This document shows positions 25,286-43,202 of a stretch of DNA of 64,000 nucleotides, in pieces. Within the stretch, counting starts at the first letter, position 1. Each line of letters opens with the position of its first letter. This stretch comes from Candidatus Omnitrophota bacterium. GTDB taxonomy: Bacteria > Omnitrophota > Gorgyraeia > Tantalellales > Tantalellaceae. The position numbers and the translations under genes are program-made. A model generated the notes under the pieces. That model had not been told where the DNA came from and searched no databases. It saw nothing but the letters and a program-made list of their open reading frames with translations. The DNA lies in contig JAQUQS010000001.1 in NCBI GenBank assembly GCA_028715965.1, forward strand, positions 164,188-228,187, given 5' to 3'.

Positions 25286-26040
25286 TTTTTTAATACTCTT
25301 TCTACCGCGGAGTCTTTTATCCACGCGGATTTCCCGTCAGAACGCCTTGCCCTGACCCATCCGTCCTTACTGTTGATTATATTCACCTTCATACCTTCGT
25401 TCAGGGTGAAGAATTTGGTGGCCGAATCAAATGGCCCGTATAGCGCCTCTACCGCCGGGACCATGACAATAGCGGACGTTCTCTCGTTCACCGCTTTATG
25501 CCAGGCCAGGAAGACATTAAAAACAAGTATTATGGAGAAACATATCAAAATTGTCCTGTGATATCGTGTAACCATCCTCCCCGTTACACCTATAGCCAAA
25601 AGAACAAGGATCACTATCATGGAAACGGACGCCACAATGGTCATCTGGTCCACGCTTAATGTTCTCTCATACACCCGTAAAGGCGTCCAGTTCCACACTC
25701 CTTTTTCCGGCACTACCTTAGCTTTTATATCGGACCTGGCGAACCTGTAATTTGCTCGTATATCAGCATCTCTTGGATCCAACGCTAACGCCCTCTCATA
25801 GTTAAGGATGGCCTTGCCCAGATTTCCCGATTTGAAATATGCCCCCGCCAGGTTGTAATATATGTTAGGGCTTTTCTTCCCGGAGGACAGTATCTTCTCG
25901 TATCCGGCTATCGCCCCGGACCAATCAGCCTGTTCATACTTATCGTTAGCGGACGAGAAAAGTTCGGCCGTTGTCTCCGCCAGGCCTCTACCGGCGGTCA
26001 ACATCAAAATAGCCAGAGATAGTACGATCATCTTCTTCAT
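25282..26040 (-). CDS. batE: BatE-like protein (TPR repeats, TM segment, C-terminal SH3b-like domain) of the aerotolerance-type Bat operon.
   Basis: It has a signal peptide, TPR motifs (YYNLAGAYFKSGNLGKAILNYERALALDP), an internal TM segment, and a C-terminal GMKVNIINSKDGWVRARRSDGKSAWIKDSAV (SH3b-like). It is the last gene of the Bat cluster. Confidence 0.65.
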   Translation of the reverse strand: MKKMIVLSLAILMLTAGRGLAETTAELFSSANDKYEQADWSGAIAGYEKILSSGKKSPNIYYNLAGAYFKSGNLGKAILNYERALALDPRDADIRANYRFARSDIKAKVVPEKGVWNWTPLRVYERTLSVDQMTIVASVSMIVILVLLAIGVTGRMVTRYHRTILICFSIILVFNVFLAWHKAVNERTSAIVMVPAVEALYGPFDSATKFFTLNEGMKVNIINSKDGWVRARRSDGKSAWIKDSAVERVLKK

Positions 26041-27887
26041 ATCTTTATCTTCTCCAGATATACCAGTAATTTTTTGGTTTTTTCAAGTGTTTCCCGGCCA
26101 TCCTTTTTATCCGGATCGAACGCCGCGTATCTGGCCATTTCGCACTTGGCTAGCACCTCTCCGAGCATGGATATTATTTCGCCACCCTTTTGAGTTCCTT
26201 CCACCCTGGCCCTCACGGCATCGACCGTTACATTACCCTTAGGCAGGTCAAGCTTACCCGACACGTATTCTCCAAGCGCCTTGGTAAGAGTATCATAGAA
26301 CAACTCCATATCGCCTTTCTTCAGATAGGATTCGGCTTTCGAGATACCTTTCTTGGCTTTTCCCGGGGCCTTGGTAAAACGGGCATATTTCTTGTCGGTA
26401 CGCATTTTCTCGCTTTTGCGGTATGCCCCAAAAAATATACCGAACAGGACAAGCACAAGTAAGTGCCCGGGCAAAAATAATGGGTTCCTGTATAGATATC
26501 CGCCTATCGGGCTTACTTCCCCGGTATCATCCTTGATATGTATGATATCCTGCCCTATTTTTTCCTGCGGGTAGAATACCTGTTCTTTACCCGAAAGCGT
26601 TACCATCTTTACACTGTTCTCGGTCCCGGACGGTTTCATTACCGAGATCGGGAAAGGTCCCTTCTTTATGGTCTTGTATCTGCCTGAAGCGGGATTAAAA
26701 AAGCTGAAAGAGACCTCGGGTATTTCAGTTACTTTGTCGCTCTTAGGTATTATTACTTGTTCGTATACTTTCTTGTTCGTTTCCCTGGAAACATCCGGTT
26801 CATATGTCTTAAGGTCGTCCGTAATGTTAACACTGGGAGAAGTGACCGTATCCATGTTCCCGGAACCGGAGATAATGGTCTTTAATACCACGGGATCCCC
26901 GACATTGACTTTGATGGGATCTATGGACGCATCCATATCGAAATACCCTACAGCGCCCTTAAAGTCCAACGGCTTACCTTCAGACGGGAAAGGTAATACC
27001 GACACATTAAGCCCTTTCGACTCGAGTTCCACTGGATAAACATCATATCCGCCAAAAGCACTATCGAAGAAATCGTCATTAAAAACGCTCATGCCGAACA
27101 GGGAGGATCTTCTGCGCGAGACCTGTTTCCTCACCAGCATTTTGCAATTAAGCCTGGCCGGACCGATCTCATATTCCCCTTCTTTTATGGCGAAGATGTT
27201 CTGCCTGAAAACAAGTACTTCATATCTACGTCCGCCCACTGTCTCCTGGGTCCTTTGCGGCTCATTGAAATCCTCCCCGGAAAAACCTTCATGAGCATAA
27301 GCCGGGAATTCTATATCCCTCAGGCCCACTCCATCCACGTAAAGTTTTATGGTGAGTATCGCCGATTCGTTGACATAAAGGCTGTTCTTGTCTATGCTCA
27401 TGGAAAGGAATATATTATCACCGGTATAAGCGGGTACGGAGGTAGCGTCCGGGACACTGGACATCGGGGGTTGTCCGGCCTGCTGGGTCACGGCGGGTTT
27501 ACCCGTTATGGAGAGGTCGAGCGCCGGAGCTTCATATACCTTACCTCCCTGTTCGGCCCGGAACGGGCCTATTTTATAAGTGCCTTCCCTGCGTGGAAAG
27601 ACCAGATACGTATGTGTGATCGATCGTGACATCTTCCCGTTCACAATGGTCATGCTGGTGGTCGGTCCTATGTACTTTATGTTAAGACCATCCACCTGCG
27701 GGATATCAGGCGCGTCCACATCCTGCGCTCCCCTGAACTCCAGGTAAAGGTATAGGGGGTTACCGACCGAAGCCGTGCTTCTCTCTATCCTGGCGTTGAA
27801 GGCCATTCCCTCTTGTGCCCATCCCGGCAGGACATGGCCCAACAGAAAAACGAATATCAGCGATAATAACCGTGCTTTTTTCATCAC
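26037..27887 (-). CDS. batD: BatD-like protein (616 aa, secreted or outer-membrane associated).
   Basis: It has a signal peptide (MMKKARLLSLIFVFLLGHVLPGWAQ), the size and position typical of BatD between BatC and BatE, and a C-terminal TM segment. It overlaps batE by 4 nt. Confidence 0.65.
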   Translation of the reverse strand: MMKKARLLSLIFVFLLGHVLPGWAQEGMAFNARIERSTASVGNPLYLYLEFRGAQDVDAPDIPQVDGLNIKYIGPTTSMTIVNGKMSRSITHTYLVFPRREGTYKIGPFRAEQGGKVYEAPALDLSITGKPAVTQQAGQPPMSSVPDATSVPAYTGDNIFLSMSIDKNSLYVNESAILTIKLYVDGVGLRDIEFPAYAHEGFSGEDFNEPQRTQETVGGRRYEVLVFRQNIFAIKEGEYEIGPARLNCKMLVRKQVSRRRSSLFGMSVFNDDFFDSAFGGYDVYPVELESKGLNVSVLPFPSEGKPLDFKGAVGYFDMDASIDPIKVNVGDPVVLKTIISGSGNMDTVTSPSVNITDDLKTYEPDVSRETNKKVYEQVIIPKSDKVTEIPEVSFSFFNPASGRYKTIKKGPFPISVMKPSGTENSVKMVTLSGKEQVFYPQEKIGQDIIHIKDDTGEVSPIGGYLYRNPLFLPGHLLVLVLFGIFFGAYRKSEKMRTDKKYARFTKAPGKAKKGISKAESYLKKGDMELFYDTLTKALGEYVSGKLDLPKGNVTVDAVRARVEGTQKGGEIISMLGEVLAKCEMARYAAFDPDKKDGRETLEKTKKLLVYLEKIKI

Positions 27888-27940
27888 ACCTCTTGATCCA
27901 CCGTAAGTATTCTCCTATCCAAGACCCTCTTATATCATCG

Positions 27941-28906
27941 CTACCAATCCCTGACGACCGGAGGGCTCCCGGACCTGCGTGCTTTCTTTTCCTCCGCCCG
28001 CATCCTGGACTCTTCTTCTTCCTGTGACCTGAGCAGCATCTCGGCCTCGTCCCTGGTCATCCTGCCTTCGGACCCAAATCCTTCCGAGGACTGCTCTTGC
28101 TGGTCTTGCCCGTTATCATTACCCGACCCAGCTCCGGGCTGGGGGCCTTCTTCTTCATCCCGGTTTTCCTCATTTTTATTCTGCTGTTGCCCACCGGACT
28201 GTCGCTGGTCTTCCTGGTCCTTCTGCTGTTGCTGGTCCTGCTGATCCTGCTGCTCTTCCTGGTCCTTCTGCTGTTGCTGGTCCTGCTGATCCTTCTGCTT
28301 TTCCTGGTTCTTCTGCTGTTGCTGGTCCTGCTGATCGTTCTGCTTTTCCTGGTTCTTCTTCTGTTGCTGGTCCTGCTGATCCTGCTGCTTTTCCTGGTCC
28401 TTCTGCTGTTGCTGATCCTGTTGCTGGCTCTCTAACGTTTCTATTTTTTTACGTGTATACTCAAAATTGAATTTAGCGTCCATATCCTCCGGAGCCAGTT
28501 CAACAGCTCTTTTAAAATATTCCAGGGATTCCTTATACCCGGCTATAGCCTTTGCCGGCGAGCTTTTTTCGGCCTTCTCCGCCTGGCGATATCGTGAATT
28601 TCCTATGTTGTATATAGCCTTGTCCTCTATCTTTTCATCTCCGGCTGACATGGATCCAAGGAACGCTTTTTCCGCCTCCCCGTATTTACCCTCTTTATAC
28701 AAGACCGCGCCACGGTTGTACTCTATACCAGGCTGGTCCTTCCCGCTTGAAATAGCTTTATCGTATTCCTTGAGCGCTTCTTCATATTTCTCATCTTTAT
28801 ATAACCGGTCAGCCCTGCCCAGATCACCGCCGGCAAAACACAACCCCGCGTGCATACACACCATAAGCGCGCACAGGTATATGGTGGACGTAATAGACCT
28901 TCTCAT
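27941..28906 (-). CDS. batC: BatC-like TPR protein with a long acidic, Gln-rich repetitive C-terminal region.
   Basis: It has a signal peptide, TPR repeats (YNRGAVLYKEGKYGEAEKAF...), then roughly 90 aa of QQQKDQEKQ(Q/N)DQQDQ repeats. Confidence 0.65.
   Translation of the reverse strand: MRRSITSTIYLCALMVCMHAGLCFAGGDLGRADRLYKDEKYEEALKEYDKAISSGKDQPGIEYNRGAVLYKEGKYGEAEKAFLGSMSAGDEKIEDKAIYNIGNSRYRQAEKAEKSSPAKAIAGYKESLEYFKRAVELAPEDMDAKFNFEYTRKKIETLESQQQDQQQQKDQEKQQDQQDQQQKKNQEKQNDQQDQQQQKNQEKQKDQQDQQQQKDQEEQQDQQDQQQQKDQEDQRQSGGQQQNKNEENRDEEEGPQPGAGSGNDNGQDQQEQSSEGFGSEGRMTRDEAEMLLRSQEEEESRMRAEEKKARRSGSPPVVRDW
28207..28430. repeat. In-frame 45-bp tandem repeat (about 5 copies) inside batC, encoding 15-aa Q/D/K/E units.
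   Basis: Seen directly: ttcctggtccttctgctgttgctggtcctgctgatcctgctgctc recurs with a few substitutions (28207-28430). Confidence 0.8.
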
Positions 28907-28922
28907 TTTACCCTCTATATCT

Positions 28923-29936
28923 TCAATTGACGATGTTTTTTCTTCTGTCTCCCAGGAACACCTCTATCAAAAGCAGGAACCCGGCGATAAATAACGGCAG
29001 CTGGAACCTTTCATAATAGCGTTTTTCCATCCTACTCTTGAATTCCTCTTTTTCAAGCCCGGCAAGTTTTTTCTCGTATATAAGGTCCAGCCCGAACTCC
29101 GCCCCGGTAGCTCTTACATACATACCTCCCGTCTGAAGGGCTATTGACTGAAGCACGTCCTCCCTGAGACGGGTCTTGACCACATTACCTTCCATATCCT
29201 TAAGAAAAGATGTCTTGCCCGTACCCGCGTCCCGGACAGGAACAAGTTCCCCTTCTTCCGAGCCGATACCCACACAATATATGTTGATCCCGGCCACCTT
29301 GGCTTTTTGCACGGCTTTATCGACACCACCCTCAAGGTCCTCTCCGTCGGTTATGATTATCAGTATCTTATTCTCTTTTTTCTCCTTCTCATAACTTTCG
29401 ATGGCTTTATATATCGCCTCCGAGATGGATGTTCCCCCCATCGGTATCGTATCTACACTTATATCATCAAGCGCCAGCAGGAACCCGTCATAGTCAATGG
29501 TCAAAGGGCATTGAAGAAAAGCCGACCCTGAAAAAGCTATAAGCCCCAACCTGTCACCCTTGAGTTTCTTGACCATATCCTTGACAGCCAGTTTGGCACG
29601 CTCCAACCGGTTAGGCCTTACGTCTTCAGCGAGCATACTTTTCGAGGTATCCAGCGCTATTATTATATCTATGCCCTGTTTTTTCACTTCCTTCCATTCG
29701 AATCCCCATTGGGGACGCATAAGCGCCATCGCGATGAAAAATAACGCGGCAAGTTTTATGATATCCTTTCTTTTCCGGCGCGAATTGTCATATGAAGCGG
29801 CTATTTCAGCTAAAAGACCTTTTTCGGCGAAACGTTCCAGCGTGCTCTTCCTGCGGCCGGAAGAAAGAATAAAGAACACCGCTACCGCCGGTAACAGCCA
29901 TAAAAGAACACTCATTTGCGGCGCGCCGAACATCAT
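28923..29936 (-). CDS. batB: BatB-like von Willebrand factor A domain membrane protein.
   Basis: It has N-terminal TM helices and a VWA MIDAS motif (IIALDTSKSM ... ITDGED). Confidence 0.75.
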   Translation of the reverse strand: MMFGAPQMSVLLWLLPAVAVFFILSSGRRKSTLERFAEKGLLAEIAASYDNSRRKRKDIIKLAALFFIAMALMRPQWGFEWKEVKKQGIDIIIALDTSKSMLAEDVRPNRLERAKLAVKDMVKKLKGDRLGLIAFSGSAFLQCPLTIDYDGFLLALDDISVDTIPMGGTSISEAIYKAIESYEKEKKENKILIIITDGEDLEGGVDKAVQKAKVAGINIYCVGIGSEEGELVPVRDAGTGKTSFLKDMEGNVVKTRLREDVLQSIALQTGGMYVRATGAEFGLDLIYEKKLAGLEKEEFKSRMEKRYYERFQLPLFIAGFLLLIEVFLGDRRKNIVN

Positions 29937-29937
29937 G

Positions 29938-30942
29938 TTAAGGTAACCTCCTGAATAAAGTATCGGACAATATTATCTCCGCCAGGAAGAGCGCCAAAGC
30001 CGGGACCAGTAGATACGGGAACAACTCCTTGAAAATGTTGAACCCGGTCTCTTCTATCGGGGTCTTCTCCAGCTTATCTATCTCATCATATATGCGTTCC
30101 AGTGATTCCGTATCGGTCGCCCTGTAATATTTACCGCCGGTAACATCCGCTATTTCCCCGAGAAGCTCTTCATCTATCTCGACCTCCATAGGTCGTAAGA
30201 CCGTATTCCCGAACCTGTCTTCCACAGGATAGGGGGCCATCCCCCTGGTCCCGGCGCCTATCGTGTACACCCTGACACCTAATGCCTTGGCGGCTTCAGC
30301 GGCTACCATCGGGGATATTGTCCCGGCGTTGTTCCGTCCATCGGTAAGCAATATCACGATCTTCTGCTTTGTCTTGGTATCCTTCAACCGGTTAAGCGCG
30401 GCGCTTATAGCCGAACCTATCGCGGTACCGTCCTTCATCATGCCTATCTGTACCCTGTCCAGGTTCTCCTCAAGCCAATTATGGTCGAGTGTAAGAGGAC
30501 AGACCGTGTACGCCAGGCCCGCGAAAGCGACCAGGCCTATCCTGTCGTTCGGCCTTCTCTGCACAAAAGAATCAACTACCTTTTTGACCACTTCAAGCCG
30601 GTCAACCCGGCGCTTGTTGATCTCGAAATCCATAGCGCGCATACTCGTTGAGGTATCCACCGCCAGCACGATATCGATACCTTCCACGTATATATGTGTC
30701 TCTTCCAGTATGGTTTGGGGCCGGGAACCGGCGGCTAGCACAAGTATTATGGCCAGGAGTCTGAGATGCCGGACCTTAGCGCTTAATCTGCTCCTCAGCG
30801 TGGGCTTTATCCCGCCGATCACCGTGTTGTTGGAGAACCTGATAAAGCTCCTTTTCCCGGAACGCATATGGTCAAGCACCAGATACAGGGCTATGACCGG
30901 GGGTATGGATAAAAGGACAAGGGGAGAAGCCAGACGCATCAT
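29938..30942 (-). CDS. batA: BatA-like von Willebrand factor A domain membrane protein.
   Basis: It has N-terminal TM helices, the MIDAS motif VLAVDTSTSM ... LLTDGRNNAG, and a C-terminal TM segment. Confidence 0.75.
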   Translation of the reverse strand: MMRLASPLVLLSIPPVIALYLVLDHMRSGKRSFIRFSNNTVIGGIKPTLRSRLSAKVRHLRLLAIILVLAAGSRPQTILEETHIYVEGIDIVLAVDTSTSMRAMDFEINKRRVDRLEVVKKVVDSFVQRRPNDRIGLVAFAGLAYTVCPLTLDHNWLEENLDRVQIGMMKDGTAIGSAISAALNRLKDTKTKQKIVILLTDGRNNAGTISPMVAAEAAKALGVRVYTIGAGTRGMAPYPVEDRFGNTVLRPMEVEIDEELLGEIADVTGGKYYRATDTESLERIYDEIDKLEKTPIEETGFNIFKELFPYLLVPALALFLAEIILSDTLFRRLP

Positions 30943-31904
30943 GCCGTTCCCCTTTCTTCTTCCTCACCCTTTTTTGTCTGGTCCACAAGGTCCATGGCTG
31001 ACTTGAAACTGTCTATTATATCGATAGGCCTAGGGGCGAATTTCGCGAACTTTACCATATCACAATGCGAAAGGAACTCCTTTAGAAGACGCTTGTGTTC
31101 CGGGAACAGGTCATCCGTATTTTTCAAGAATGAAAGGAACTCTTCCGTTGTCATTTCAGGGGCCTTGTACGAGAAACGCGCCTCCAGGTACCGCCTTATT
31201 ATATCGGATAACTCGGTATAATATTCGTCCACGAATCCCTTCGATGGAAGCTCCTTTGCTTTCAGTTCCTCCAGCCTCTTATACGCTCTCTCATGCGGAG
31301 GCATGATATTGTCCAAACTGGCCTCACGCAATACGACCCGGAAGCGCCTTATTGCTGCGCGTAGCGCCAATGCCGCGAGTACTGATACAACGAGCAATAC
31401 CGATACAAGAAGAAAATAGTTCCTGAACACGATAAGTCCCTTGATATCCCGTATATCCTTGCTGTCCGGCAGTAGTGTGGTCTGGACATCAATATCCAGA
31501 CCGGCGGATGAGGTCTCATTCCACTTGTCAGCACCCTTTGCCCGGTATCTTACTTTTACGGAAGGGATATGGTACTTACCCGCGGCAAAGCTCCTGAGCA
31601 CATAAACATATCCGGGGACTTTGCCCCATAAAGGACCTTCTTTTTCCGGATATGCCCTTACGAGCTCCATACCTTCCGGCATACCAATCTTCTCGGGGAA
31701 TTCCACATCCATCTTTTTCCCTCCGGGAAAGAAGACCTCGAGCCTGACATCGTCCCCGATGAATATATCCTCTTTCGAGAGCCTGACATCAAGATCCGTA
31801 CCGGTCTTCCCCTGGCAAAAAGATATCCCGCAGCATAAAACGACCAACAGGCTCATGACCCCGCGTATAATGGCTTTACTACTCAGGCTTCCTATTTTTA
31901 TCAC
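30939..31904 (-). CDS. Membrane protein of the MoxR/Bat operon (DUF4381-like position between the DUF58 gene and batA).
   Basis: It has a signal peptide, a central TM segment (LLVSVLLVVSVLAALALRA), a conserved operon position, and a 4-nt overlap with batA. Confidence 0.55.
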   Translation of the reverse strand: MIKIGSLSSKAIIRGVMSLLVVLCCGISFCQGKTGTDLDVRLSKEDIFIGDDVRLEVFFPGGKKMDVEFPEKIGMPEGMELVRAYPEKEGPLWGKVPGYVYVLRSFAAGKYHIPSVKVRYRAKGADKWNETSSAGLDIDVQTTLLPDSKDIRDIKGLIVFRNYFLLVSVLLVVSVLAALALRAAIRRFRVVLREASLDNIMPPHERAYKRLEELKAKELPSKGFVDEYYTELSDIIRRYLEARFSYKAPEMTTEEFLSFLKNTDDLFPEHKRLLKEFLSHCDMVKFAKFAPRPIDIIDSFKSAMDLVDQTKKGEEEERGTA

Positions 31905-31919
31905 GCTTACATACCTCTT

Positions 31920-32822
31920 TTATCGTCTGATAAACCGTTTTTCACGTGTCCTGAAAAACCTTATCAAAGGCTCAACATACGACCTGTCCGTGGACAACTC
32001 TATGTGGTCCACGTTCACCGACCTGAAAAGCCGGCGCGCGCGCTCCCTTATCTCACGGTTCTCCCTGCGGAACATATCCCTGACAGCGGGCGAAGACGTG
32101 TCTACGACCGCCCTTAGTCCGGTTTCGGCGTCCCGGAGCTCCAACAAGCCCGCGTTCGTAAGCTCGGCTTCCGACGGGTCTTCTACCGTAACGGCTATTA
32201 CATCATGTTTTTTATTGGTTATCGAAAGTGTTTTCCGGAAATCATCTGAGTAGAAATCAGACACAAGAAAGACTATCGCCCGCCGGTGAGCCACTTTATT
32301 AAGATGGTTCAGGACCTTGTTTATATCGGTATGGGTCCCTGCTGGTCTATTATGCAATGCCTCCCTTATCACACGAAGCACGTGTTTCATTCCCTTACGG
32401 GGCGGCACGAACTTTTCGACCCTGTCCGTGAACGTGAGCATACCTACCTTGTCGTTGTTCTTTATGGCGGAGAATGCTATGACCGAACAAAGTTCCGCGG
32501 CAAGCTCACTTTTCATGCGTCCCCTTGTCCCGAACCGGCAGGACATGGACACATCAAGAAGGATCATTATGGTAAGTTCCCTCTCCTCCACGAATTTCTT
32601 GATATAAGGATGCCCCATGCGCGCCGTGACGTTCCAGTCTATTGAACGTATCTCGTCTCCCGGAGTGTATTCCCTGACCTCGTCGAACTCCATCCCCACG
32701 CCCTTGAACACACTCTGGTACTGACCAGCGAACACATCCGTTACTTTTCTCGAGGTAGTTATCTGTATCCGTCTTATCTTGCGTATGGTCTCTTTAGGTA
32801 TCATAATGAGCTCCCCGCGCAA
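31920..32822 (-). CDS. DUF58-family protein (MoxR-associated, VWA-like fold).
   Basis: The characteristic DUF58 motifs are ...QYQSVFKGVGMEFDEVREYTPGDEIRSIDWNVTAR... and ILLDVSMSCRFGT. The alternative start M7 is at 32804. Confidence 0.8.
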   Translation of the reverse strand: MRGELIMIPKETIRKIRRIQITTSRKVTDVFAGQYQSVFKGVGMEFDEVREYTPGDEIRSIDWNVTARMGHPYIKKFVEERELTIMILLDVSMSCRFGTRGRMKSELAAELCSVIAFSAIKNNDKVGMLTFTDRVEKFVPPRKGMKHVLRVIREALHNRPAGTHTDINKVLNHLNKVAHRRAIVFLVSDFYSDDFRKTLSITNKKHDVIAVTVEDPSEAELTNAGLLELRDAETGLRAVVDTSSPAVRDMFRRENREIRERARRLFRSVNVDHIELSTDRSYVEPLIRFFRTREKRFIRR

Positions 32823-32855
32823 AAATGATCACTTTATGGTCCGATACGCGGACCG

Positions 32856-33848
32856 TTATGGTACTTCTATCTCGTCGAATATCTTTTTTACTATGTCTTC
32901 CGCGGTCTTGTCTTCCGCTTCGGCCTCATAACTCGGTATGACCCTGTGGCGCAGGACATCCGGCCCTATCGACTTAACATCCTGTGGGGTCACATATCCC
33001 CTGCGCTGCACGAAAGCGTAAGCTTTTGCCGCTATAGCCAGGTTTATACTGGCTCTCGGCGAAGCACCGTAATCGATCAGTCCCTCAAGGTCCTTGATCC
33101 CGTATTCGCCCGGGGTACGGGTAGCGAAGACTATATCAACGATGTATCTTTCTATTTTTTCGTCCATATATATCTCATTCACTACCTTTCTGGCCTCAAG
33201 TATCCTTTCCGGCGATACTACGGGCTTTACGTCTATATGCCTGTCCGTGTTGGCCATCCGTTTGAGTATCTTATGCTCCTCCTCTTTGGAGGGGTAGCCG
33301 ATATTTATCTTCAGCATGAACCTGTCTACCTGGGCCTCGGGCAAGGGATATGTACCCTCCTGCTCTATCGGGTTCTGTGTGGCCAGCACCAGGAAAGGTT
33401 CTTCAAGTTTGTACGTGTTCTCACCTATGGTCACCTGCTTTTCCTGCATAGCTTCCAGAAGTGCGCTTTGGACTTTCGCGGGCGCCCTGTTTATCTCATC
33501 GGCAAGTATTATGTTAGAGAATATAGGGCCTTTTTTAGTGGTGAAAGTACCGTCCTTGGGACTATAGACCAATGTACCGATAAGGTCCGCGGGCAAAAGG
33601 TCCGGCGTGAATTGGAGTCTCTGGAACTTTGTGCTTATGGCGGAGGACAGCACCCTCACCGAGAGGGTCTTGGCCAGTCCAGGGACCCCTTCTATCAATA
33701 CATGGCCGTTGGCGAGAAGCCCGACCATTAACCTCTGTATGAGGTAATCCTGTCCGACTATCACTTTACGTATCTCGGCAAGTAGTTCATCAACAAAAAG
33801 ACTTTCATTCTGTACTTTTTCGTTTATTGCTGTTATGCCCTGGGACAT
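32856..33848 (-). CDS. moxR: MoxR-family AAA+ ATPase (first gene of the aerotolerance-type operon).
   Basis: Walker A is HVLIEGVPGLAKT and Walker B is LADEINRAPAKVQSALLEAM, as in MoxR. A strong SD (AAGGAGGT-5 nt-ATG) supports the start at 33848 (MSQGITAI); the ORF track's longer N-terminus runs into AT-rich promoter DNA. Confidence 0.85.
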   Translation of the reverse strand: MSQGITAINEKVQNESLFVDELLAEIRKVIVGQDYLIQRLMVGLLANGHVLIEGVPGLAKTLSVRVLSSAISTKFQRLQFTPDLLPADLIGTLVYSPKDGTFTTKKGPIFSNIILADEINRAPAKVQSALLEAMQEKQVTIGENTYKLEEPFLVLATQNPIEQEGTYPLPEAQVDRFMLKINIGYPSKEEEHKILKRMANTDRHIDVKPVVSPERILEARKVVNEIYMDEKIERYIVDIVFATRTPGEYGIKDLEGLIDYGASPRASINLAIAAKAYAFVQRRGYVTPQDVKSIGPDVLRHRVIPSYEAEAEDKTAEDIVKKIFDEIEVP

Positions 33849-33870
33849 CTCAACCTCCTTGCTTATATTT

Positions 33871-33905
33871 TTACAGTATAATATTGATACTATACAACAA
33901 ATAAA
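33871..33905 (-). promoter_or_regulatory. Putative promoter of the moxR-bat operon (TATACT/TATTAT -10 region with an upstream TTGTTG/TTGTAT -35 candidate).
   Basis: AT-rich sequence ttgttgtatagtatcaatattatactgtaa (minus strand) lies immediately upstream of the moxR SD. The exact boxes are ambiguous. Confidence 0.35.
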
Positions 33906-33954
33906 AACCTTTTTCAAGAAGACGTGTTAACGACTATTTTTATTTACGTTAATA

Positions 33955-36056: not shown

Positions 36057-36545
36057 TCAATATACGATCGTCCCCGGGGTGTTCTTCCATTCCACCAGTA
36101 TAGCCATGCATTCTTCCCGCATGAAACCCGGTTCGATACGGACGGGTGAAAGACCTTTTTCCTTCATGTGCATCGACGATATACACAATTCATTGAAACC
36201 CAGCTTCTTCACGTCCTCTATGTCTGTCCCATAAACAAGGCGTTCTATCCTGGCCCAGTGTATGGCCGCGAAACACATTGGACATGGTTCGGTCGTGGAA
36301 TATATGACACATCCGGACAGGTCGTGGCTACCTATTTCCCCGGCGGCCAGGGATATCGCGTTGATCTCGGCGTGCCGTGTAGGGTCTTTTTGCTCAAGTA
36401 CGGAGTTATGCGCGGAAGCTATGATCTTCCCGTCCTTTACCAGTACCGCGCCGAAAGGCCCGCCACTGCCACCTCTTATCCCATTAAGCGCTTCCTGTAT
36501 CGCCACATTCATGGCTTTGTGGTCATCCACTTCGTTCCTTCTCAT
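36057..36545 (-). CDS. CMP/dCMP-type zinc deaminase, guanine deaminase (GuaD)-like.
   Basis: The HAEINAI...TTEPCPMCFAAIHWARIERLVYG zinc-binding H(A)E...PCxxC motifs are present, with an overall close resemblance to Bacillus GuaD (about 160 aa). Confidence 0.7.
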   Translation of the reverse strand: MRRNEVDDHKAMNVAIQEALNGIRGGSGGPFGAVLVKDGKIIASAHNSVLEQKDPTRHAEINAISLAAGEIGSHDLSGCVIYSTTEPCPMCFAAIHWARIERLVYGTDIEDVKKLGFNELCISSMHMKEKGLSPVRIEPGFMREECMAILVEWKNTPGTIVY

Positions 36546-36919
36546 TTCTCCAGTTTGCTCCTTATATCCTTAAGCACTTTATCTATCCTGTCTATTCTCC
36601 ACTCAAGGGACGACAATATCCAGAACTGGAAATGGTTGAGCCTCATATAAGATTCCAGGAAGTATACGAGCTTTAGCGACAAGAGCAATATGCCAAGCTC
36701 TATCATGAAAAAACGTATCTTGCCGCCGTACAATATCGATAGGGCGAATATCACGAGTACAAGGGTTATGAATATTACGTTTATCAGGCGGGCCCGGTCC
36801 GAAGGAACGCCCCCGATCTTTCCTATTATCTTCCTTACGTTCTCTTTCTCCTGCTCAAAACTGCGTATAGCGTCTTCCAGCTCCGTTTCCTGGTCCGTCT
36901 TGCTGTAATGTTCTTTCAT
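36542..36919 (-). CDS. Small two-TM membrane protein of unknown function (last gene of the exbBD-TPR-VWA module).
   Basis: The sequence is MKEHYSKTDQETELEDAIRSFEQEKENV... with two hydrophobic helices. An SD (GGAAGGA) precedes the ATG at 36919; the ORF track's longer start (36997) lacks one. Confidence 0.5.
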   Translation of the reverse strand: MKEHYSKTDQETELEDAIRSFEQEKENVRKIIGKIGGVPSDRARLINVIFITLVLVIFALSILYGGKIRFFMIELGILLLSLKLVYFLESYMRLNHFQFWILSSLEWRIDRIDKVLKDIRSKLEK

Positions 36920-36945
36920 GATGTCCTTCCATTCCTTATTTTGTT

Positions 36946-37115
36946 TTTTTCTCGGTCGTGGACACGTCGTGTTTCTTATCGTTCTCGGTGGCCACAAGGA
37001 CAGTGGCCGCGGCCCCCGCCCCGGCCAGGAACCAGAGCGGAGCGCATCCCGCGCTTGTCATGACATATGAAATAAGGACCAAACCTCCCACGAATATCCT
37101 TGCTCTCGTCACCAT
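36946..37115 (-). CDS. Possible unannotated small hydrophobic or lipoprotein-like ORF (56 aa), below the ORF-track length cutoff.
   Basis: My reading of the minus strand gives MVTRARIFVGGLVLISYVMTSAGCAPLWFLAGAGAAATVLVATENDKKHDVSTTEKKTK*. It starts 11 nt after the VWA-gene stop, preceded by AAAGGGGA. A lipobox-like SAGC is present. Confidence 0.3.
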
Positions 37116-37126
37116 TATCCCCTTTC

Positions 37127-38806
37127 TCAGTCCTTCCCCGTATCGTCGAGGTCATAGGAAGTATTTATCCCGAATCTTTCGCAAAGTGCGCTTATCTCGT
37201 TCTTGAGCCCTACCGGATCCCCCAGCCCCATGCTATCCCGGCTTATGAGGTAATATATCCTGCGAAAAGCCCATTGCCTGGCGATATCCTTATCCCCCGG
37301 GGAAGCGTCTTTCAACGATTTGGCGAAAATGAACTCTTTCGTCGCGCCTTTTATCTCTCCCAGTAGCTGCATGGAAAATATGTCCTCTTCCCCGTAGCGG
37401 CCATATATGGCGAACGGCTTTCCCATGTAAAAATCAGTAAGATATTTCGGGAAGATCTCATCTTGACGCAGGCCGTTGGACCTATAACGTACGTTTATCA
37501 GCAGCGGGTCCTTGATCTCCCTGTAGAACCCCACAAAAGCCGTGTCAATGTCGGCGTTCGACGACGCGAATCCGCTCCAGGCCCTGTTCTGGTAAGATAT
37601 GAACTCCAGAAGATATCGATTGACCCGGCTGCCGCCGCCGAAACAGAAAATCGGTCTTTTCATATCGTTAGACCGCGTTATCTCCTGTATGATATTACGC
37701 GAATCGACAAGACCTGTCGTGGGTCGTCCGTCGCTTATAAGTATAACATATGATGGAACGGACCGCATTGGTTCCTGTGTAATATCCAGAAGGGCCCTTT
37801 CCACATTGGTCTGCCCGGTGGATTCCAGGTCCCTTATGAACGACCTGGCGCTTTCGACCGTCCTTTCCGTACACCTTAACGGGGTCTCACTGAACTTTAT
37901 CACGTTGCCCTTGAACGATAATATGTTGAACGTATCTCCCGGATTGAATATCTGGATAGCGTTCCATAGCCCTTTTTTTATCTCCGCTAGTTTCTGCTCG
38001 GTTATGCTCTTCGAAGAATCAACAAGGAAAAGCACTTCTTTTGGCATGACCTGCAGGTCCCCTGTCCTTTTTACGTTTATAAGAACGCGGAAAAAATTCT
38101 CTCCCGTACCCGGGTCATGATACGTCTTGAGGTCAACGTCAAGATACGGGCTTATGTCCCCGTAATCCCCTATACGCGACGGCCCCTTGCTGGCGGACAC
38201 TTCTTTGGATACAGGATCGGGAGAGGTCTTTAGCAGTGGCTCCGGCAATGGTGTGGACATGCCTTTCCCCGGGGGAGAAATGCTTGAGATCTCCGATGAT
38301 CTGAGCTCACCTGGGACCCCGTCTTCCCCTGCCGGGGCTTTTACCATGCCTCCTGAGACAAATTCACCGGCAATATGTCTTCTTTCCGATGTTATGCGTC
38401 TACTGGACTTCTTGGCCTCGGCCTTTATCACGTCCGGCAATTCCATCTTTCTGCTCAAACTTCCCGACACATCCTCCCTGTCGGCCGCCTTCATTTCATG
38501 CTTTTTCTTTTCTATGGCCTCACCCTCCAACTTCGCCACTGGCATGACCTTCTCGAACAGTACTTCATCGATACCTGTTGTCTCATGCGACATCTTAATG
38601 GCAGGCTGGGTATCATCTTCTTCCCGCGCTATGGAAATATCCCCGGCGCGGCCCTCCAATCCGCGGATACGGAAAAGTTTCTGCGACGCGATGATCGCGT
38701 GTTTAACCCCGGCAAGTCTTATATACGGGCTTACCGCCACGAATATGACGTGCAGCAGTATGGACGCTATCAAGGCAAGATAAAGGGTCCTAGTTCTTCT
38801 TGTCAT
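37127..38806 (-). CDS. Membrane-anchored VWA-domain protein with a TonB/TolA-like N-terminal anchor (SxxxH motif), a charged and Pro-containing linker, a VWA domain and a ~200-aa C-terminal region.
   Basis: The N-terminus is MTRRTRTLYLALIASILLHVIFVAVSPY (S-ILL-H, as in TonB SHLS / TolA). The linker is ...SSISPPGKGMSTPLPEPLLKTSPDPVSKE. The VWA region is VLFLVDSSKSITE...LISDGRPTTG. It overlaps the upstream TPR gene by 17 nt. Confidence 0.75.
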   Translation of the reverse strand: MTRRTRTLYLALIASILLHVIFVAVSPYIRLAGVKHAIIASQKLFRIRGLEGRAGDISIAREEDDTQPAIKMSHETTGIDEVLFEKVMPVAKLEGEAIEKKKHEMKAADREDVSGSLSRKMELPDVIKAEAKKSSRRITSERRHIAGEFVSGGMVKAPAGEDGVPGELRSSEISSISPPGKGMSTPLPEPLLKTSPDPVSKEVSASKGPSRIGDYGDISPYLDVDLKTYHDPGTGENFFRVLINVKRTGDLQVMPKEVLFLVDSSKSITEQKLAEIKKGLWNAIQIFNPGDTFNILSFKGNVIKFSETPLRCTERTVESARSFIRDLESTGQTNVERALLDITQEPMRSVPSYVILISDGRPTTGLVDSRNIIQEITRSNDMKRPIFCFGGGSRVNRYLLEFISYQNRAWSGFASSNADIDTAFVGFYREIKDPLLINVRYRSNGLRQDEIFPKYLTDFYMGKPFAIYGRYGEEDIFSMQLLGEIKGATKEFIFAKSLKDASPGDKDIARQWAFRRIYYLISRDSMGLGDPVGLKNEISALCERFGINTSYDLDDTGKD

Positions 38807-41144
38807 CTATCTCTTCTATTCTCTTCTTTGCGTTGGAGGAAAAAGAGCTGTCCGGATATCTACCTATCAGCTCCTTCAGCACTTTCACCGCCTCTACCTC
38901 GTCACCCGCTTCATAAAAAGCTTCCCCTGCCCGGAACAAGGCTTCCGAGCATAGTCCCTTATCTTCGTACAATATGGCCACCATCATGTAGTTTTTCGCG
39001 GCTTCCCTGTTATCCTTCTTAGCGGCGTATATCCTTCCCATTTCGAACCGTACGAGCGCCCCGGTCTTGTTGTCCCTGTCCGATGTAAGGGCTTTCTCGA
39101 GCTCTACAATGGCCTTGTCCATTTCCCCCTTATTGTACAGGGCCTTACCCATGCCGAGATAAGCTCGCCCGGCATATGGCGTACCTTCACCTTTTTCGGA
39201 TATATCCTTATATAGCTTGAACGCCTTGTCATTCTCCCCGGAACACAGGAATACCTGGGCCCTTAGGTAAGCTATACCCGTATCGGAGGCCCGTCCCGGA
39301 TATTCTTCTACGAGCCTGTCCAGGGCCGTCATGGCCTTTTCCCGATCACATTCTTCGGCGTAAAATTCCGCCACCCACTGGTATATGCCTTCAGGCATCC
39401 TGTACGCGGTCCGGGTGGAGATCAGCCCATAATACACGTCTGCCGCCCCGGCATGGTCACCTTCCTGGAAAAGGGAATACGCCTTTGCTTCGGCGGCCTT
39501 GTCCGCCAGGTCGGATGTATCCTTTATCGTATCGAAATTCTCTACCGACAGGGCCCATTCCTTCTTTGCTTGATACGCTTTCCCCATAGCGTACATGACC
39601 GCGTCGCCGACCCGGGTATCGGGATACTCCGCCAGGAGCCCCTTGTAACACTCTATGCTCTTGTCATATTCCTGGGCACCTAGATACGCTTTGCCCATCT
39701 GGTAAAGCACGTTCTCCCGGAGAGGACTGTCCTTGTACCTGTTCAAAAAATCCTCACAATCCCGCGCGGCGTCATTAAAAAGCTCGAGGGAGATCTTCTC
39801 TTCCACCGATCTCAATATAGCCACAGGCGCTCTTTCTTCCGATGGGTCGTTCTTGGCGAAAAGATCCAGGTATTTCGTGGCTTTTTCATGGTCATTGAGC
39901 TCGGAAGATAACCACCCGGCCTCATAAAGCGCGTCGCCATAATACCTGCTGGATGGATATCCCGATAACACTTTCTCGAAACTCGAGAGAGCTTCTTTCT
40001 TGTCCCCTTTCCGGGTAAGGATCTTACCCTTGAGATACAATGCCTCACTCAAGTCCTCATCCCCTGTCCCAGGAAAACTCCCGACCTTCAACAGGGCTTC
40101 CGGGTCTTTATCCATGCGATAAAGGACCCATGCCAGATCTAGCGTAGATCTTTTGCCGGACACGGTCTCGGGATATTCCTTTTCGTTCTTCGAGAAAAAA
40201 CGCGCCGCCTCCACGTACCTGTCATCGTTGAAACAGCTCACGCCAGCCGCGTAGATCATTTTTGAGCGGATGTCCCTGTCTGAAACCCTGTCAAGGGCGC
40301 CATCAACGAACGCCGCTGTCTCAGCCCCATTACCTTCCCGGCTGATACAGGAAACCAAGCCCAAAGCCGCCCTGTCAAGGACCGTGGGCGGCATTTCCTC
40401 CCCCTCCATAAGTTCGTTATATATCTGTCCGGCCAGGGAAGTCTTGTCCATCGCGTAATACGCCCCGGCAGCGTAGAGTTTGGCCTGGTATTTAGACTCG
40501 CTTTCGGGAAAAAGTCCCGCTGCCGATAGATAAGCCTCCGCCTCTTTCCCGTATTCTTTCCTTCCGTCGTATATCCCTCCCAGGGACATGTATGCATATG
40601 GAGCATATTCACTGTCTCCGTACCTTGACACAAAACCTTCTAGGGCCGTCATGGCCTTTTCGGTCTTTCCCTGTTTATCATATCCGGACGCGAGATAGAA
40701 CCTGGCGGACTCTTCGACATCATCCTCCTCTCCCGAAGATATGAGGCGTGAGAATACCCTTTCGGAATCCGCGTAATCCCCCTTCATGTAGTATGACTGC
40801 CCCTTACGCAGGACCATTTCCCTTGAGAACGCGCTCCCAGGGCTGGCGTTCAGGATCTCGTCACAATATGACAGGGTCTCGTCATATTGCCCGGACAGAA
40901 AATAGCTCTCTACGATCCTGTACTCGGCCAGATCCTTGTGGGCCGACCCCGGATATTCCGACAAGAACCCCTTATACCCTTCTATGGCCATATCATACAT
41001 GCCCCGAGAGAAAAGACCGTTAGCGAAATCCAGTTCCTCCACCTCGTTCCCTGCCCTGTCGCCCGCGGCATAACCCGTGTATTGCGCCATGACCGGGAAC
41101 AAAAAGATCGCGGCCACCAGATACAGTCGTCCTATTCTTCTCAT
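38790..41144 (-). CDS. Large periplasmic TPR-repeat protein (784 aa, more than 15 TPR units) with a signal peptide.
   Basis: The signal peptide is MRRIGRLYLVAAIFLFPVMAQ. Repeated TPR signatures follow (AEYRIVESYFLSGQYDETL..., AYLRAQVFLCSGENDKAFKLY..., ALFRAGEAFYEAGDEVEAVKVLKELIGRYP). Its start overlaps the exbD stop (ATGA). Confidence 0.8.
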   Translation of the reverse strand: MRRIGRLYLVAAIFLFPVMAQYTGYAAGDRAGNEVEELDFANGLFSRGMYDMAIEGYKGFLSEYPGSAHKDLAEYRIVESYFLSGQYDETLSYCDEILNASPGSAFSREMVLRKGQSYYMKGDYADSERVFSRLISSGEEDDVEESARFYLASGYDKQGKTEKAMTALEGFVSRYGDSEYAPYAYMSLGGIYDGRKEYGKEAEAYLSAAGLFPESESKYQAKLYAAGAYYAMDKTSLAGQIYNELMEGEEMPPTVLDRAALGLVSCISREGNGAETAAFVDGALDRVSDRDIRSKMIYAAGVSCFNDDRYVEAARFFSKNEKEYPETVSGKRSTLDLAWVLYRMDKDPEALLKVGSFPGTGDEDLSEALYLKGKILTRKGDKKEALSSFEKVLSGYPSSRYYGDALYEAGWLSSELNDHEKATKYLDLFAKNDPSEERAPVAILRSVEEKISLELFNDAARDCEDFLNRYKDSPLRENVLYQMGKAYLGAQEYDKSIECYKGLLAEYPDTRVGDAVMYAMGKAYQAKKEWALSVENFDTIKDTSDLADKAAEAKAYSLFQEGDHAGAADVYYGLISTRTAYRMPEGIYQWVAEFYAEECDREKAMTALDRLVEEYPGRASDTGIAYLRAQVFLCSGENDKAFKLYKDISEKGEGTPYAGRAYLGMGKALYNKGEMDKAIVELEKALTSDRDNKTGALVRFEMGRIYAAKKDNREAAKNYMMVAILYEDKGLCSEALFRAGEAFYEAGDEVEAVKVLKELIGRYPDSSFSSNAKKRIEEIDDKKN

Positions 41145-41569
41145 TTCTTGTCCTTTTCACGTATAGTAGCGAAAGAAACGTTCCATATCCCGCTGGAAGC
41201 GCAAATGTCCAATACTTTTATGACGTCCTTATGAAGAGTGTCCCTGTCCGCCCTGATTATCACGGGCTGGTTCTTATAAAGCTCCGCCACCCGTACCAGC
41301 ATGTCCCGGAGCGCGGCGTGGTCCAGCTCCCTCTGGTTAACGACTATCGTGCCATCCTGACGTATGTTTATTATTATTTCACCTGCCGTACGTTTCATAT
41401 CCGTGGACTTTTCGGCGACCGGTACGGTGATGTTTATCTCACTCTCAAGCTGGTAAAATACCGACGCGGACATGAAAAAGATGAGAAGAAGGAATACGAT
41501 ATCTATGAGCGGAGCCATTTGTATCTGGGGGCCCGTCTGCTTTGCTTCCTTTACGGACGAAAGATCCAT
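41141..41569 (-). CDS. exbD: ExbD/TolR-family biopolymer transport protein.
   Basis: It is 142 aa with the N-terminal motif APLIDIVFLLLIFFM (the conserved TM Asp-containing segment of ExbD/TolR). Confidence 0.85.
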   Translation of the reverse strand: MDLSSVKEAKQTGPQIQMAPLIDIVFLLLIFFMSASVFYQLESEINITVPVAEKSTDMKRTAGEIIINIRQDGTIVVNQRELDHAALRDMLVRVAELYKNQPVIIRADRDTLHKDVIKVLDICASSGIWNVSFATIREKDKK

Positions 41570-41591: not shown

Positions 41592-42338
41592 TCAGCGTTT
41601 AATGTTCTTCTTTACCAGAAGGTGGTACAGGTCTCCTGACACGTCTTCAAGCCGGGCTATGACCCCTTGGACCTTTCCCCTGAAAAAAGAATAAAAGATC
41701 ATCGACGGTATCGCTATCATAAGTCCCGCGGCTGTGGTAACCATAGCTTTTGATATCCCGCTGGCAAGTAGTATGGGTTTAACTGACCCGGTCTGGAACG
41801 CGATAACATTGAAAGCCTGTATCATACCTATGACCGTACCCAGGAGGCCCACCATGGGAGCTATAGACGCTATATCTGCCAGGTAACTTATCTTCTGCCA
41901 CAGGTCTTCCACGGCCCGCCGGCCCGCGTCCTGTATGGCCTCTTTTATTATAGGCTCTTCCTTTCCTACACGGGTAAGTCCCGCCAGAAGCACATCCGAT
42001 ATAAGGTTGTTATTATTCTCGCATATCATCTTTGCCTCCTGGAACCCGCTCCTTTCGATGACCGATACGGTCTTCTCGAAAAATGTGTCCGGGATAAGTT
42101 TTTCTTTCTTGATCATTACCGTGTAATATATGATGAGCCCGACCGCGGCTATCGATAAAAATCCCAGCACCACCATCACCCATCCCCCGGACTGGATTAT
42201 CTGCCACAAGGTCATCCCGTTCTCCGCGTCGGACGCGTCGGGGATATATTGCGAGACGGCTCCCTGGGCTGTTGCTTCCATTGTCATTATTACGTTCATT
42301 AAGCAGAAAAATACGGCGGTTCTCTTACGGATATTCAT
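41592..42338 (-). CDS. exbB: MotA/TolQ/ExbB-family proton channel with an N-terminal signal/periplasmic extension.
   Basis: The C-terminal TM2/TM3 signature is ...IASIAPMVGLLGTVIGMIQAF...SGISKAMVTTAAGLMIAIPS. A strong SD (AGGAGGT-6 nt) supports the start at 42338; the ORF track extends to 42392. Confidence 0.85.
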   Translation of the reverse strand: MNIRKRTAVFFCLMNVIMTMEATAQGAVSQYIPDASDAENGMTLWQIIQSGGWVMVVLGFLSIAAVGLIIYYTVMIKKEKLIPDTFFEKTVSVIERSGFQEAKMICENNNNLISDVLLAGLTRVGKEEPIIKEAIQDAGRRAVEDLWQKISYLADIASIAPMVGLLGTVIGMIQAFNVIAFQTGSVKPILLASGISKAMVTTAAGLMIAIPSMIFYSFFRGKVQGVIARLEDVSGDLYHLLVKKNIKR

Positions 42339-42430
42339 CCCCTGACCTCCTGTTTGATCTTTGGCGGGATACATAACAAGGCAAAAAGACATATCATGGT
42401 CATGCAGTCCTTCCTGGTATATTTCATAGA

Positions 42431-42460
42431 ATTATACATTTTTGTAAGGCTATGTGTAAA
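42431..42460 (-). promoter_or_regulatory. Sigma70-type promoter for the exbB-exbD-TPR-VWA module (TTTACA-18-TGTATAAT).
   Basis: On the minus strand it reads TTTACACATAGCCTTACAAAAATGTATAAT. A perfect TATAAT with an extended TG lies about 95 nt upstream of the exbB ATG. Confidence 0.55.
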
Positions 42461-42479: not shown

Positions 42480-43202
42480 TCATACGAAGATCACAGTGCC
42501 GGCGTCAAAAAGCGGCGCGCTATGGACCTCAAGGCTGATGACCCCGGCCCGGGAGAACATTTCCTTGATGCGGAGGCCGTCAGGGTGGGTCAGGAGGTCC
42601 CCCGCGATAAAGACCCTGCCGTCCGGGAGCGTTCCACTGGCGCCTCCGATCAGACCATACTTCTCTCCAGGCAGTTCTACCCCGCCCGCGGATACCAACC
42701 CGGCCGTAATGCCCCTTTTTTGGGCCTCAAGGTATATTCCTTTATCCGAAGTCACTATATGCCGGTCGTCAAGGACAAGAGTGGAACATCTCGCGTACCC
42801 CTGAGGTACATGTACGAAGTCCAACCCCGCTTCCAGGCCGAGTTCTTTTATTACCGGGTCCGTGTGTTCCAGGTTGTGGAACATGAACCTCCCTATCTTT
42901 ACCGCGTTATATGAACATGTGCGGGGATACTTCCCGTCAGGCACCTTGCTCCCAGGGACCGTCCTTATCCCGTTACGCCTGAAAATATCCGTATATGTGT
43001 GGTCTATACCCGGGGCGTGTACAACAAGGTCTTCCCTTAACTTGAAAAAGAATATATCCGGGTGCCCGGATATTGAGGCATAGACCGTTTCCCTGCCAAA
43101 TGCTTTTGACGAAGAGAACTCTACGGGGTCGACATCCGGCAGCCCGGCGGACATCCCGGAAATATAAACTCCCGGCATACGTTCGTCATATAGCGCTTTC
43201 AT
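42480..43202 (-). CDS. Conserved hypothetical protein (240 aa) encoded directly downstream of a radical SAM gene; family not recognized.
   Basis: An uninterrupted ORF with coding-like composition lies adjacent to the rSAM stop with a 0-nt gap. No motif was confidently assigned. Confidence 0.5.
   Translation of the reverse strand: MKALYDERMPGVYISGMSAGLPDVDPVEFSSSKAFGRETVYASISGHPDIFFFKLREDLVVHAPGIDHTYTDIFRRNGIRTVPGSKVPDGKYPRTCSYNAVKIGRFMFHNLEHTDPVIKELGLEAGLDFVHVPQGYARCSTLVLDDRHIVTSDKGIYLEAQKRGITAGLVSAGGVELPGEKYGLIGGASGTLPDGRVFIAGDLLTHPDGLRIKEMFSRAGVISLEVHSAPLFDAGTVIFV

Follow-up and report, generated by a model that had tools for sequence, protein, structure and literature searches.

A stretch of 64,000 nt from a Candidatus Omnitrophota genome (the window, along which all positions are numbered) encodes on its minus strand a 559-residue protein with a VWA (von Willebrand factor A) domain. 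We conclude that this protein is probably a transducer analogous to TonB and TolA, driven by an ExbB5-ExbD2 motor: it would engage the motor through a Ser/His helix face and a 'motor box', and would convey force derived from the proton-motive force (PMF) along a linker to a ligand bound at the metal-ion-dependent adhesion site (MIDAS) of its head. A preliminary description of the sequence had suggested a domain swap on the TonB/TolA chassis; the analysis supports this suggestion, which agrees with a published proposal (PMC12204202). The product is 100% identical to a protein from an NCBI metagenome-assembled genome that is annotated only as 'VWA domain-containing protein'.

Architecture of the VWA protein

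The gene and the parts of its product are as follows.

37127..38806, minus strand: gene of the VWA protein, a putative force transducer; 559 aa (open reading frame, Pfam, AlphaFold2 and Foldseek)
38723..38785, minus strand: N-terminal transmembrane helix LYLALIASILLHVIFVAVSPY, residues 8-28 (direct translation)
38657..38674, minus strand: candidate 'motor box' F45-R-I-R-G-L50 (conserved motif F-[RHN]-[LIV]-x-x-V)
38165..38719, minus strand: disordered charged linker, residues 30-214 (185 residues), including a Pro-rich patch (AlphaFold2, composition)
37142..38164, minus strand: folded periplasmic head, residues 215-555, ITIH1-like (AlphaFold2 pLDDT >90, Foldseek)

Direct translation confirmed the Ser-x3-His spacing described for the N-terminal helix. 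Within LYLALIASILLHVIFVAVSPY, SILLH occupies 38764..38750, with S15 at 38762-38764 and H19 at 38750-38752; the numbers S16/H20 first given to these residues belong to E. coli TonB. A basic cytoplasmic stub, MTRRTRT, directly precedes the helix, which fits an N-in, C-out anchor and not a cleaved signal peptide. The AlphaFold2 (AF2) model has a helix at residues 3-28 (predicted local distance difference test score, pLDDT, of 87-97), disorder at residues 48-213 (pLDDT <50) and, at residues 215-555, a folded head predicted with confidence. E. coli TonB and TolA are built likewise, with a basic stub on the cytoplasmic side, one helix and, for the rest, a periplasmic part in which a beta-strand-like motif ~21-28 residues after the His is followed by a long flexible spacer. 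Their Ser/His pairs (TonB S16/H20, TolA S18/H22) stand in register with S15/H19, and the gene, like theirs, is linked to exbBD/tolQR.

An SxxxH motif in a hydrophobic helix could arise by chance, as the preliminary description allowed. This is not what the sequences point to. Among 51 large open reading frames (ORFs) of the window, 25 of which have a hydrophobic 19-mer, only the VWA protein carries SxxxH within a hydrophobic segment, and its Omnitrophota homologs keep the His almost without exception and always have Ser or Ala four residues before it. SxxxH was found within the first 60 residues in 96 of the 120 homologs listed, at identities down to ~22%, the rest being mostly AxxxH or N-terminally truncated; the motif is conserved in homologs down to ~30% identity. 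When residues were counted from the His of the hydrophobic helix, which could serve as an anchor in 114 of these 120 homologs, position -4 was Ser in 84 and Ala in 30, with nothing else. In an unanchored alignment of 45 sequences (22-47% identity), H19 and F45 were the only residues of the N-terminal region conserved at 90% or above. The Ser/Ala split in Omnitrophota follows subfamilies, and phylogeny would confound its use as a covariation signal. Conservation along the helix has a sharp 100-degree period that marks a single face, comprising -8, -4 (S/A), 0 (H), +3 (F/L), +7 (S/A), +10 (I) and +14 (G); this face has the -4/0/+7 register in common with the TonB/TolA motif.

The spacer had been compared with that of TonB. 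A charged, Pro-containing patch, SSISPPGKGMSTPLPEPLLKTSPDPVSKE, is indeed present in the linker, but overall the composition (7% Pro, ~33% charged residues) is not proline-rich in the manner of TonB. The candidate motor box, F-[RHN]-[LIV]-x-x-V, spans His+26 to His+31 and aligns in the same position as ISVTMV of E. coli TonB and IDAVMV of TolA; F45 is conserved at 82% in the His-anchored count. In TonB and TolA the motor box is the segment that binds ExbD/TolR (PMC12204202).

No TonB C-terminal domain is present, as had been stated: the TonB_C and TolA models of Pfam and NCBIfam gave no match, and the head has a VWA fold. The VWA cargo and its DSSKS signature were also borne out, by Pfam matches to VWA_3, VWA and VWA_2 at residues 257-419 (PF13768, VWA_3, E 6e-14) and by translation, which places DSSKS at residues 263-267 (38020..38006). 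The MIDAS residues D263, S265 and S267 (38006-38020), T333 and D359 are invariant in 45 sequences. In the AF2 model, beta strands lead into the VWA domain, which is followed by a C-terminal beta-sandwich/helical domain. The top PDB match of the head in Foldseek was 6fpy (E 1.8e-24, 359 columns, 21% identity), the human inter-alpha-inhibitor heavy chain 1 (ITIH1) with its integrin-like MIDAS module. Such a head may bind an acidic residue of a ligand in a metal-ion-dependent manner. Ligand capture would then differ from that of TonB and TolA, which use strand augmentation, just as the VWA/MIDAS head itself replaces the TonB_C or TolA C-terminal domain.

The protein resembles ITIH1 and bacterial VIT/VWA_3 proteins in combining a VWA domain with intact MIDAS and a C-terminal domain; its motor-type N-terminal anchor and its operon context are specific to the window family. 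No VIT domain was matched by Pfam in the 559-aa protein, and AF2 shows only two short strands before the VWA domain. TIGR03788, a model of sortase targets, gave a partial match of 105 bits against a cutoff of 552 bits; the VWA protein has neither a sortase signal nor a detected VIT domain.

The VWA gene closes a four-gene cassette with exbB and exbD

The VWA gene is the last of four genes, exbB-exbD-TPR-VWA, that lie head to tail on the minus strand.

42431..42460, minus strand: sigma-70-like promoter candidate upstream of exbB, TTTACA-18-TATAAT (11/12 consensus match only)
41592..42392, minus strand: exbB/tolQ-like motor subunit, ORF of 266 aa (PF01618, E 5e-31)
41141..41569, minus strand: exbD/tolR-like motor subunit, single copy, with transmembrane Asp PLIDIVFLLLIFFM (PF02472, E 1e-27)
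38790..41144, minus strand: 784-aa tetratricopeptide repeat (TPR) protein, periplasmic, with Sec signal peptide (TIGR02795, tol_pal_ybgF)

The reading frames of exbD and the TPR gene share 4 nt, at the stop of the former and the start of the latter, and those of the TPR gene and the VWA gene share 17 nt in the same way. The real exbB start is likely the ATG at 42338, which would give a 248-aa form with a signal-peptide-like N-terminus. TolQ and TolR are the closest NCBIfam models of the motor pair, both with scores below the family cutoffs. The TPR protein matches TIGR02795 with 198 bits in five stretches (cutoff 90.1), equivalent to five CpoB/YbgF-like modules, and in 41 loci the TPR gene is matched by E. 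coli CpoB used as a query.

With a cleavable Sec signal and no membrane helix, the TPR protein cannot dock on the motor. Its orthologs also have signal peptides, with a lipobox in only 6 of 66. Since the TPR protein is secreted, usually without a lipobox, the VWA protein is the only membrane-anchored candidate partner for the motor within the cassette.

Residues at the core of the motor are kept. The equivalents of ExbD D25 (61/61), ExbB T148 (60/61) and T181 (61/61), and the Ser of the first transmembrane helix (TM1) of ExbB (S34 equivalent, 59/59) are conserved. The roles of these residues have been described, and cryo-electron microscopy structures from E. coli have the TM1 Ser of ExbB in contact with the Ser/His hub of TonB/TolA (PMC12905483). 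Judged by these residues, the proton pathway is intact and the motor looks functional.

Distribution and synteny

A scan of species-representative genomes found relatives of the VWA protein encoded at 212 or more loci. Eighty of these loci were kept, almost all labelled Omnitrophota or belonging to bins mislabelled 'Planctomycetia'; synteny was counted over a total of 55 loci with more than 4.3 kb of upstream DNA. In 53 of the 55, the VWA gene is preceded, with order and strand unchanged, by ExbB, exactly one ExbD and the TPR gene. The two exceptions, P0119 and P0120, are ~22%-identity relatives from other lineages, which have SxxxH with no exbBD nearby; the cassette is also kept in the remote members P0106 and P0114. 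Two outcomes had been named beforehand as counting against the proposal, namely loss of the Ser/His positions among homologs and absence of exbBD beside them. Both were looked for. The homologs retain the two positions, H19 at 90% or above and Ser or Ala at -4, and occur together with exbBD at all but two, both remote, of the 55 loci.

A profile search of the full library gave more than 150 clusters at 50% identity (E <1e-115), indicating a large family. Among 126 full-length representatives, 21 are without the Ser/His helix signature, most having Tyr at the His position. No second ExbB/ExbD, TonB, TolA, TolB or Pal was found by tblastn in 1.14 Mb of cassette flanks, a search of low sensitivity. 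Giant ORFs lie at or near the cassette or a remote relative in two loci, L002 (1-6132, >5242 aa) and L003 (17853-21773, >4156 aa); other loci do not share them.

The ExbB-ExbD-TPR-VWA cassette recurs in a sister family in Candidatus Hydrogenedentes (L093, L094 and L095; proteins P0380-P0491), whose TPR protein has 24% identity to that of the window over ~750 residues. Among 122 sister-family sequences the His column holds H in 80, Y in 34 (~28%), F in 3, N in 2, Q in 1 and E in 1, and the Ser column S in 60 and A in 53; the Ser at -8 is nearly invariant. The contact face is thus conserved, and a protonatable His is not strictly required. TonB with the H20N substitution is reported to be functional in E. 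coli, which would agree with a dispensable His. TM1 of ExbB is alike in Tyr-type (n=2) and His-type (n=2-3) Hydrogenedentota loci, numbers too few for covariation. In two Hydrogenedentota loci (L094, 1-3081; L095, 1-3128) ftsZ and a gene for a T2SSE-like ATPase stand directly upstream of the cassette; the adjacency to ftsZ hints weakly at a Tol-like role linked to division.

Relation to the published vWA force transducers

A class of 'vWA force transducers' was proposed by Williams-Jones et al. (Mol Biol Evol 2025, msaf138; PMC12204202), with transducers 1 and 2 of Tichowtungia aerotolerans, of the PVC (Planctomycetes-Verrucomicrobia-Chlamydiae) group, as prototypes. Members of the class combine a helix that has the His of the SHLS motif with a disordered linker, in which a motor box lies, and a vWA head; in AlphaFold3 models the transducer helix sits on the motor where TonB and TolA bind (PMC12204202). 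Omnitrophota proper and Hydrogenedentota are absent from the phyla for which PMC12204202 reports vWA transducers; the sole 'Omnitrophica' entry of its supplement, Hinthialibacteria OLB16, is listed for a conventional TolA. The Tichowtungia prototype was reconstructed from that supplement and confirmed in the database (P0121, 100% identity).

The two systems are alike in plan. Both transducers have an N-terminal Ser-x3-His, which in the prototype family (S31/H35) is conserved at 90% or above, and the helices align in register, S15 with S31 and H19 with H35. A disordered linker with a proposed motor box leads in both to a C-terminal domain of vWA fold, and both are encoded with a tolQ-like gene, one or more tolR-like genes and a large TPR gene. 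The motor proteins of Tichowtungia share ~37% identity with those of the window, closer than the E. coli proteins, and the Tichowtungia ExbB has the signal-peptide-like N-terminus as well. ITIH1 is the best PDB match of both heads, although the match of the prototype head is weak (E 9e-6, against 1.8e-24 for the window head).

The window protein nevertheless appears, by sequence, not to belong to the prototype family. BLASTP against the Tichowtungia prototype gave 23% identity over 104 residues, with a pairwise E of 0.006 that is not significant at database scale; profile-profile comparison of the two families (hhalign) gave 95.6% probability over 107 columns of the VWA core only, and searches started from either family do not retrieve the other. 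The Tichowtungia family has no Pfam VWA match and a degenerate MIDAS (e.g. DANKL in transducer 2, with no equivalent of D359), whereas that of the window is intact. Tichowtungia has two different ExbD genes and two or three paralogous transducers, in the order TPR-x-ExbB-ExbD-ExbD-vWA-vWA; the window has one transducer, in the order ExbB-ExbD-TPR-VWA, and exactly one ExbD is found in 53 of 53 cassettes of the window type. The third paralog of the Tichowtungia locus (L091, CP047593.1, 809-3154) is a 781-aa protein with the SxxxH anchor AAAVSIVVHILLILLAGS, and the same locus also holds a pair of large TPR genes and, at 110 aa and 262 aa, two genes without annotation.

By architecture, the window cassette belongs to the vWA force transducer class, as a distinct variant. 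The concept was already published in 2025 for other phyla, and the interpretation given in the preliminary description re-derives it. New here are a lineage of its own, ITIH-like and with MIDAS and one ExbD, its distribution across Omnitrophota and Hydrogenedentota, a systematic loss of a Glu in the third transmembrane helix (TM3) of ExbB, detailed below, and the natural His/Tyr variation.

A model for force transduction

We propose that the VWA protein would be the force-transducing subunit of a four-gene, PMF-driven envelope machine composed of ExbB, ExbD, a CpoB-like TPR protein and the VWA protein. Its anchor helix would bind the motor directly, docking outside the ExbB pentamer against TM1 through the Ser/His face, as in TonB and TolA, and the conserved F45-R-I-R-G-L strand (the 'motor box') would engage the periplasmic domain of ExbD. 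Proton flow through ExbB5-ExbD2 could then pull on the ~185-residue flexible linker, at the end of which the ITIH/integrin-like VWA head would hold its ligand by a MIDAS metal-ion bond to an acidic residue. Candidate ligands are the co-encoded TPR protein and an outer-membrane or cell-wall component. An acidic 'EEFDF' box at the N-terminus of the TPR protein was considered as a MIDAS ligand and rejected, the conserved DFANGLFSRG being the start of the first TPR repeat. Possible roles include envelope tethering during division and surface adhesion; a Tol-Pal-like function and an adhesion-related function are both compatible with the proposed mechanism.

Several observations weigh against this model. 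The SHLS hallmark that the preliminary description had recognized holds for its S and H, but His+7 is Ser in 61 and Ala in 29 of 114 homologs and not Leu, and His+11 is variable, so that the L and S of the motif are not conserved in the window family. A PDB search with a profile of 51 N-termini (E up to 10) returned no TonB or TolA chain; the best matches, none of them significant, were light-harvesting alpha chains and an adhesion G-protein-coupled receptor helix, and the region is probably too short for such a search to be informative. Helix homology to TonB and TolA is therefore not demonstrable by sequence statistics. In the AF2 monomer no strand is predicted at the candidate motor box. 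The position of E. coli ExbB E176/TolQ E173 (TM3, GIAEAL) is a Lys in the window (GISKAM) and in 61 of 61 Omnitrophota orthologs, and K, Q or S in Hydrogenedentota, whereas Tichowtungia has Glu. Without the TM3 Glu of ExbB/TolQ the motor is, from its residues, atypical, and Trp38 of ExbB TM1 is not conserved either. Tyr-type Hydrogenedentota loci retain the cassette; the His is therefore not indispensable. Finally, vWA transducers are known from models and genes, with no reported phenotypes (PMC12204202).

Neighbouring genes

A complete Bat-type operon lies 3 kb downstream of the cassette.

25282-33917, minus strand: Bat-type operon encoding a MoxR AAA_3 ATPase, a DUF58 protein, a 321-aa protein with no family, BatA-like and BatB-like VWA proteins, a TPR protein, BatD and a TPR+SH3 (BatE-like) protein

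Genes for a DinG-like helicase and a deaminase separate it from the cassette. BatA and BatB are also membrane-anchored VWA proteins encoded with TPR proteins, but Bat operons rely on a MoxR ATPase instead of ExbBD, the N-terminal domain of BatA (PF07584) was not found by Pfam in the 559-aa VWA protein, and the BatA and BatB of the window, which have N-terminal helices, lack the SxxxH motif. A functional link between the cassette and the Bat/MoxR operon was considered and set aside, since other genomes do not keep the two side by side.

Just downstream of the VWA gene, 36542-36997 (minus strand) holds a 151-aa membrane-protein ORF with a TTG start and no family match, which is called elsewhere as 59 + 125 aa. 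It is found downstream of the cassette, at 54-73% identity, only in the closest Omnitrophota relatives, and for that reason is not counted as core cassette. Immediately upstream of exbB is a gene for a DUF6873 protein (42480-43202, minus strand, E 4e-56), and beyond it are radical SAM, Maf, Dus and NYN/YacP genes; DUF6873 lies outside the cassette in other genomes. Elsewhere in the window, an ORF of 1871 aa (1049-6664, minus strand) has an N-terminal hydrophobic segment and is otherwise uncharacterized, its only Pfam match being a weak one to Glyco_transf_5 (starch synthase catalytic domain) at residues 489-762.

Alternative interpretations

It is possible, though we put it forward tentatively, that the cassette is the lineage's counterpart of Tol-Pal, acting in outer-membrane tethering or constriction when cells divide, with the VWA head in place of the TolA domain III-TolB-Pal contact. 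This would refine the transducer model as to its role and does not contradict it. The closeness of the motor to TolQ/TolR among NCBIfam models and the five YbgF/CpoB-type modules of the TPR protein, matched by E. coli CpoB in 41 loci, are consistent with it, as are the position directly downstream of ftsZ in two Hydrogenedentota loci and the occurrence of a relative in at least 212 species-representative genomes. However, the matches to TolQ/TolR fall short of the family cutoffs, the flanks searched gave no TolB or Pal at any locus, ftsZ is not adjacent in the window or in Omnitrophota loci, and a preprint reports proteins with a TonB C-terminal domain in some Omnitrophota. In its broadest form, this idea would make the cassette the principal system of envelope force transduction throughout both phyla, Omnitrophota and Hydrogenedentota, as a division-linked replacement of Tol-Pal that couples through MIDAS and tolerates the change of His to Tyr; this we consider unlikely.

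A role of the cassette in driving surface adhesion, gliding or attachment to prey, comparable to that of the Agl-Glt machinery of Myxococcus with its VWA adhesin CglB, seems to us quite doubtful. The VWA head would in that case engage an outer-membrane or surface adhesin complex. Adhesion was raised by the authors of the published class (PMC12204202); VWA/MIDAS domains are typical adhesion modules, the head is integrin/ITIH-like, and a preprint describes Omnitrophota as host-dependent. Genes for giant surface proteins are found close to the cassette in L002 and L003, but these neighbours are not conserved and the cassette itself encodes no outer-membrane components. Moreover, an inner-membrane anchor followed by a ~185-residue linker implies that the VWA protein itself is not surface-exposed.

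We regard as unlikely a passive role for the VWA protein, as a periplasmic scaffold or sensor like BatA/BatB, with ExbBD energizing the TPR protein or an unlinked TonB and the polar helix face serving self-association or binding of another partner. Such a role would accommodate a helix whose similarity to TonB/TolA is not statistically demonstrable, the sister family's exchange of the His for Tyr, Phe, Asn or Gln, the presence of SxxxH with no exbBD nearby in P0119 and P0120, and the Bat/MoxR VWA operon 3 kb away in the window. Against it stand synteny and reading-frame overlap across two phyla; the TPR protein, having a cleavable signal and no membrane helix, cannot dock on the motor; no other transducer candidate was found in the cassette or its flanks; and Bat genes are not beside the cassette at other loci, while BatA and BatB lack the motif. 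A role in defence (e.g. of the Zorya type, with MotAB) was considered and found no support in PADLOC, which matched none of the four cassette proteins.

Implications

The understood outputs of 5:2 proton motors of the ExbBD, TolQR and MotAB kinds are few: nutrient import, envelope stabilization, flagellar rotation and gliding. A VWA head coupled to such a motor would add a new kind of output. The window lineage offers a simpler case than the published prototype, since motor, ExbD, transducer and TPR partner are each present once, and its intact MIDAS makes ligand capture addressable by a single point mutation. What His20 does in TonB has long been asked, and the His/Tyr polymorphism of the sister family is relevant to that question. 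Two little-studied phyla, whose bacteria are very small or host-dependent, carry the cassette almost universally.

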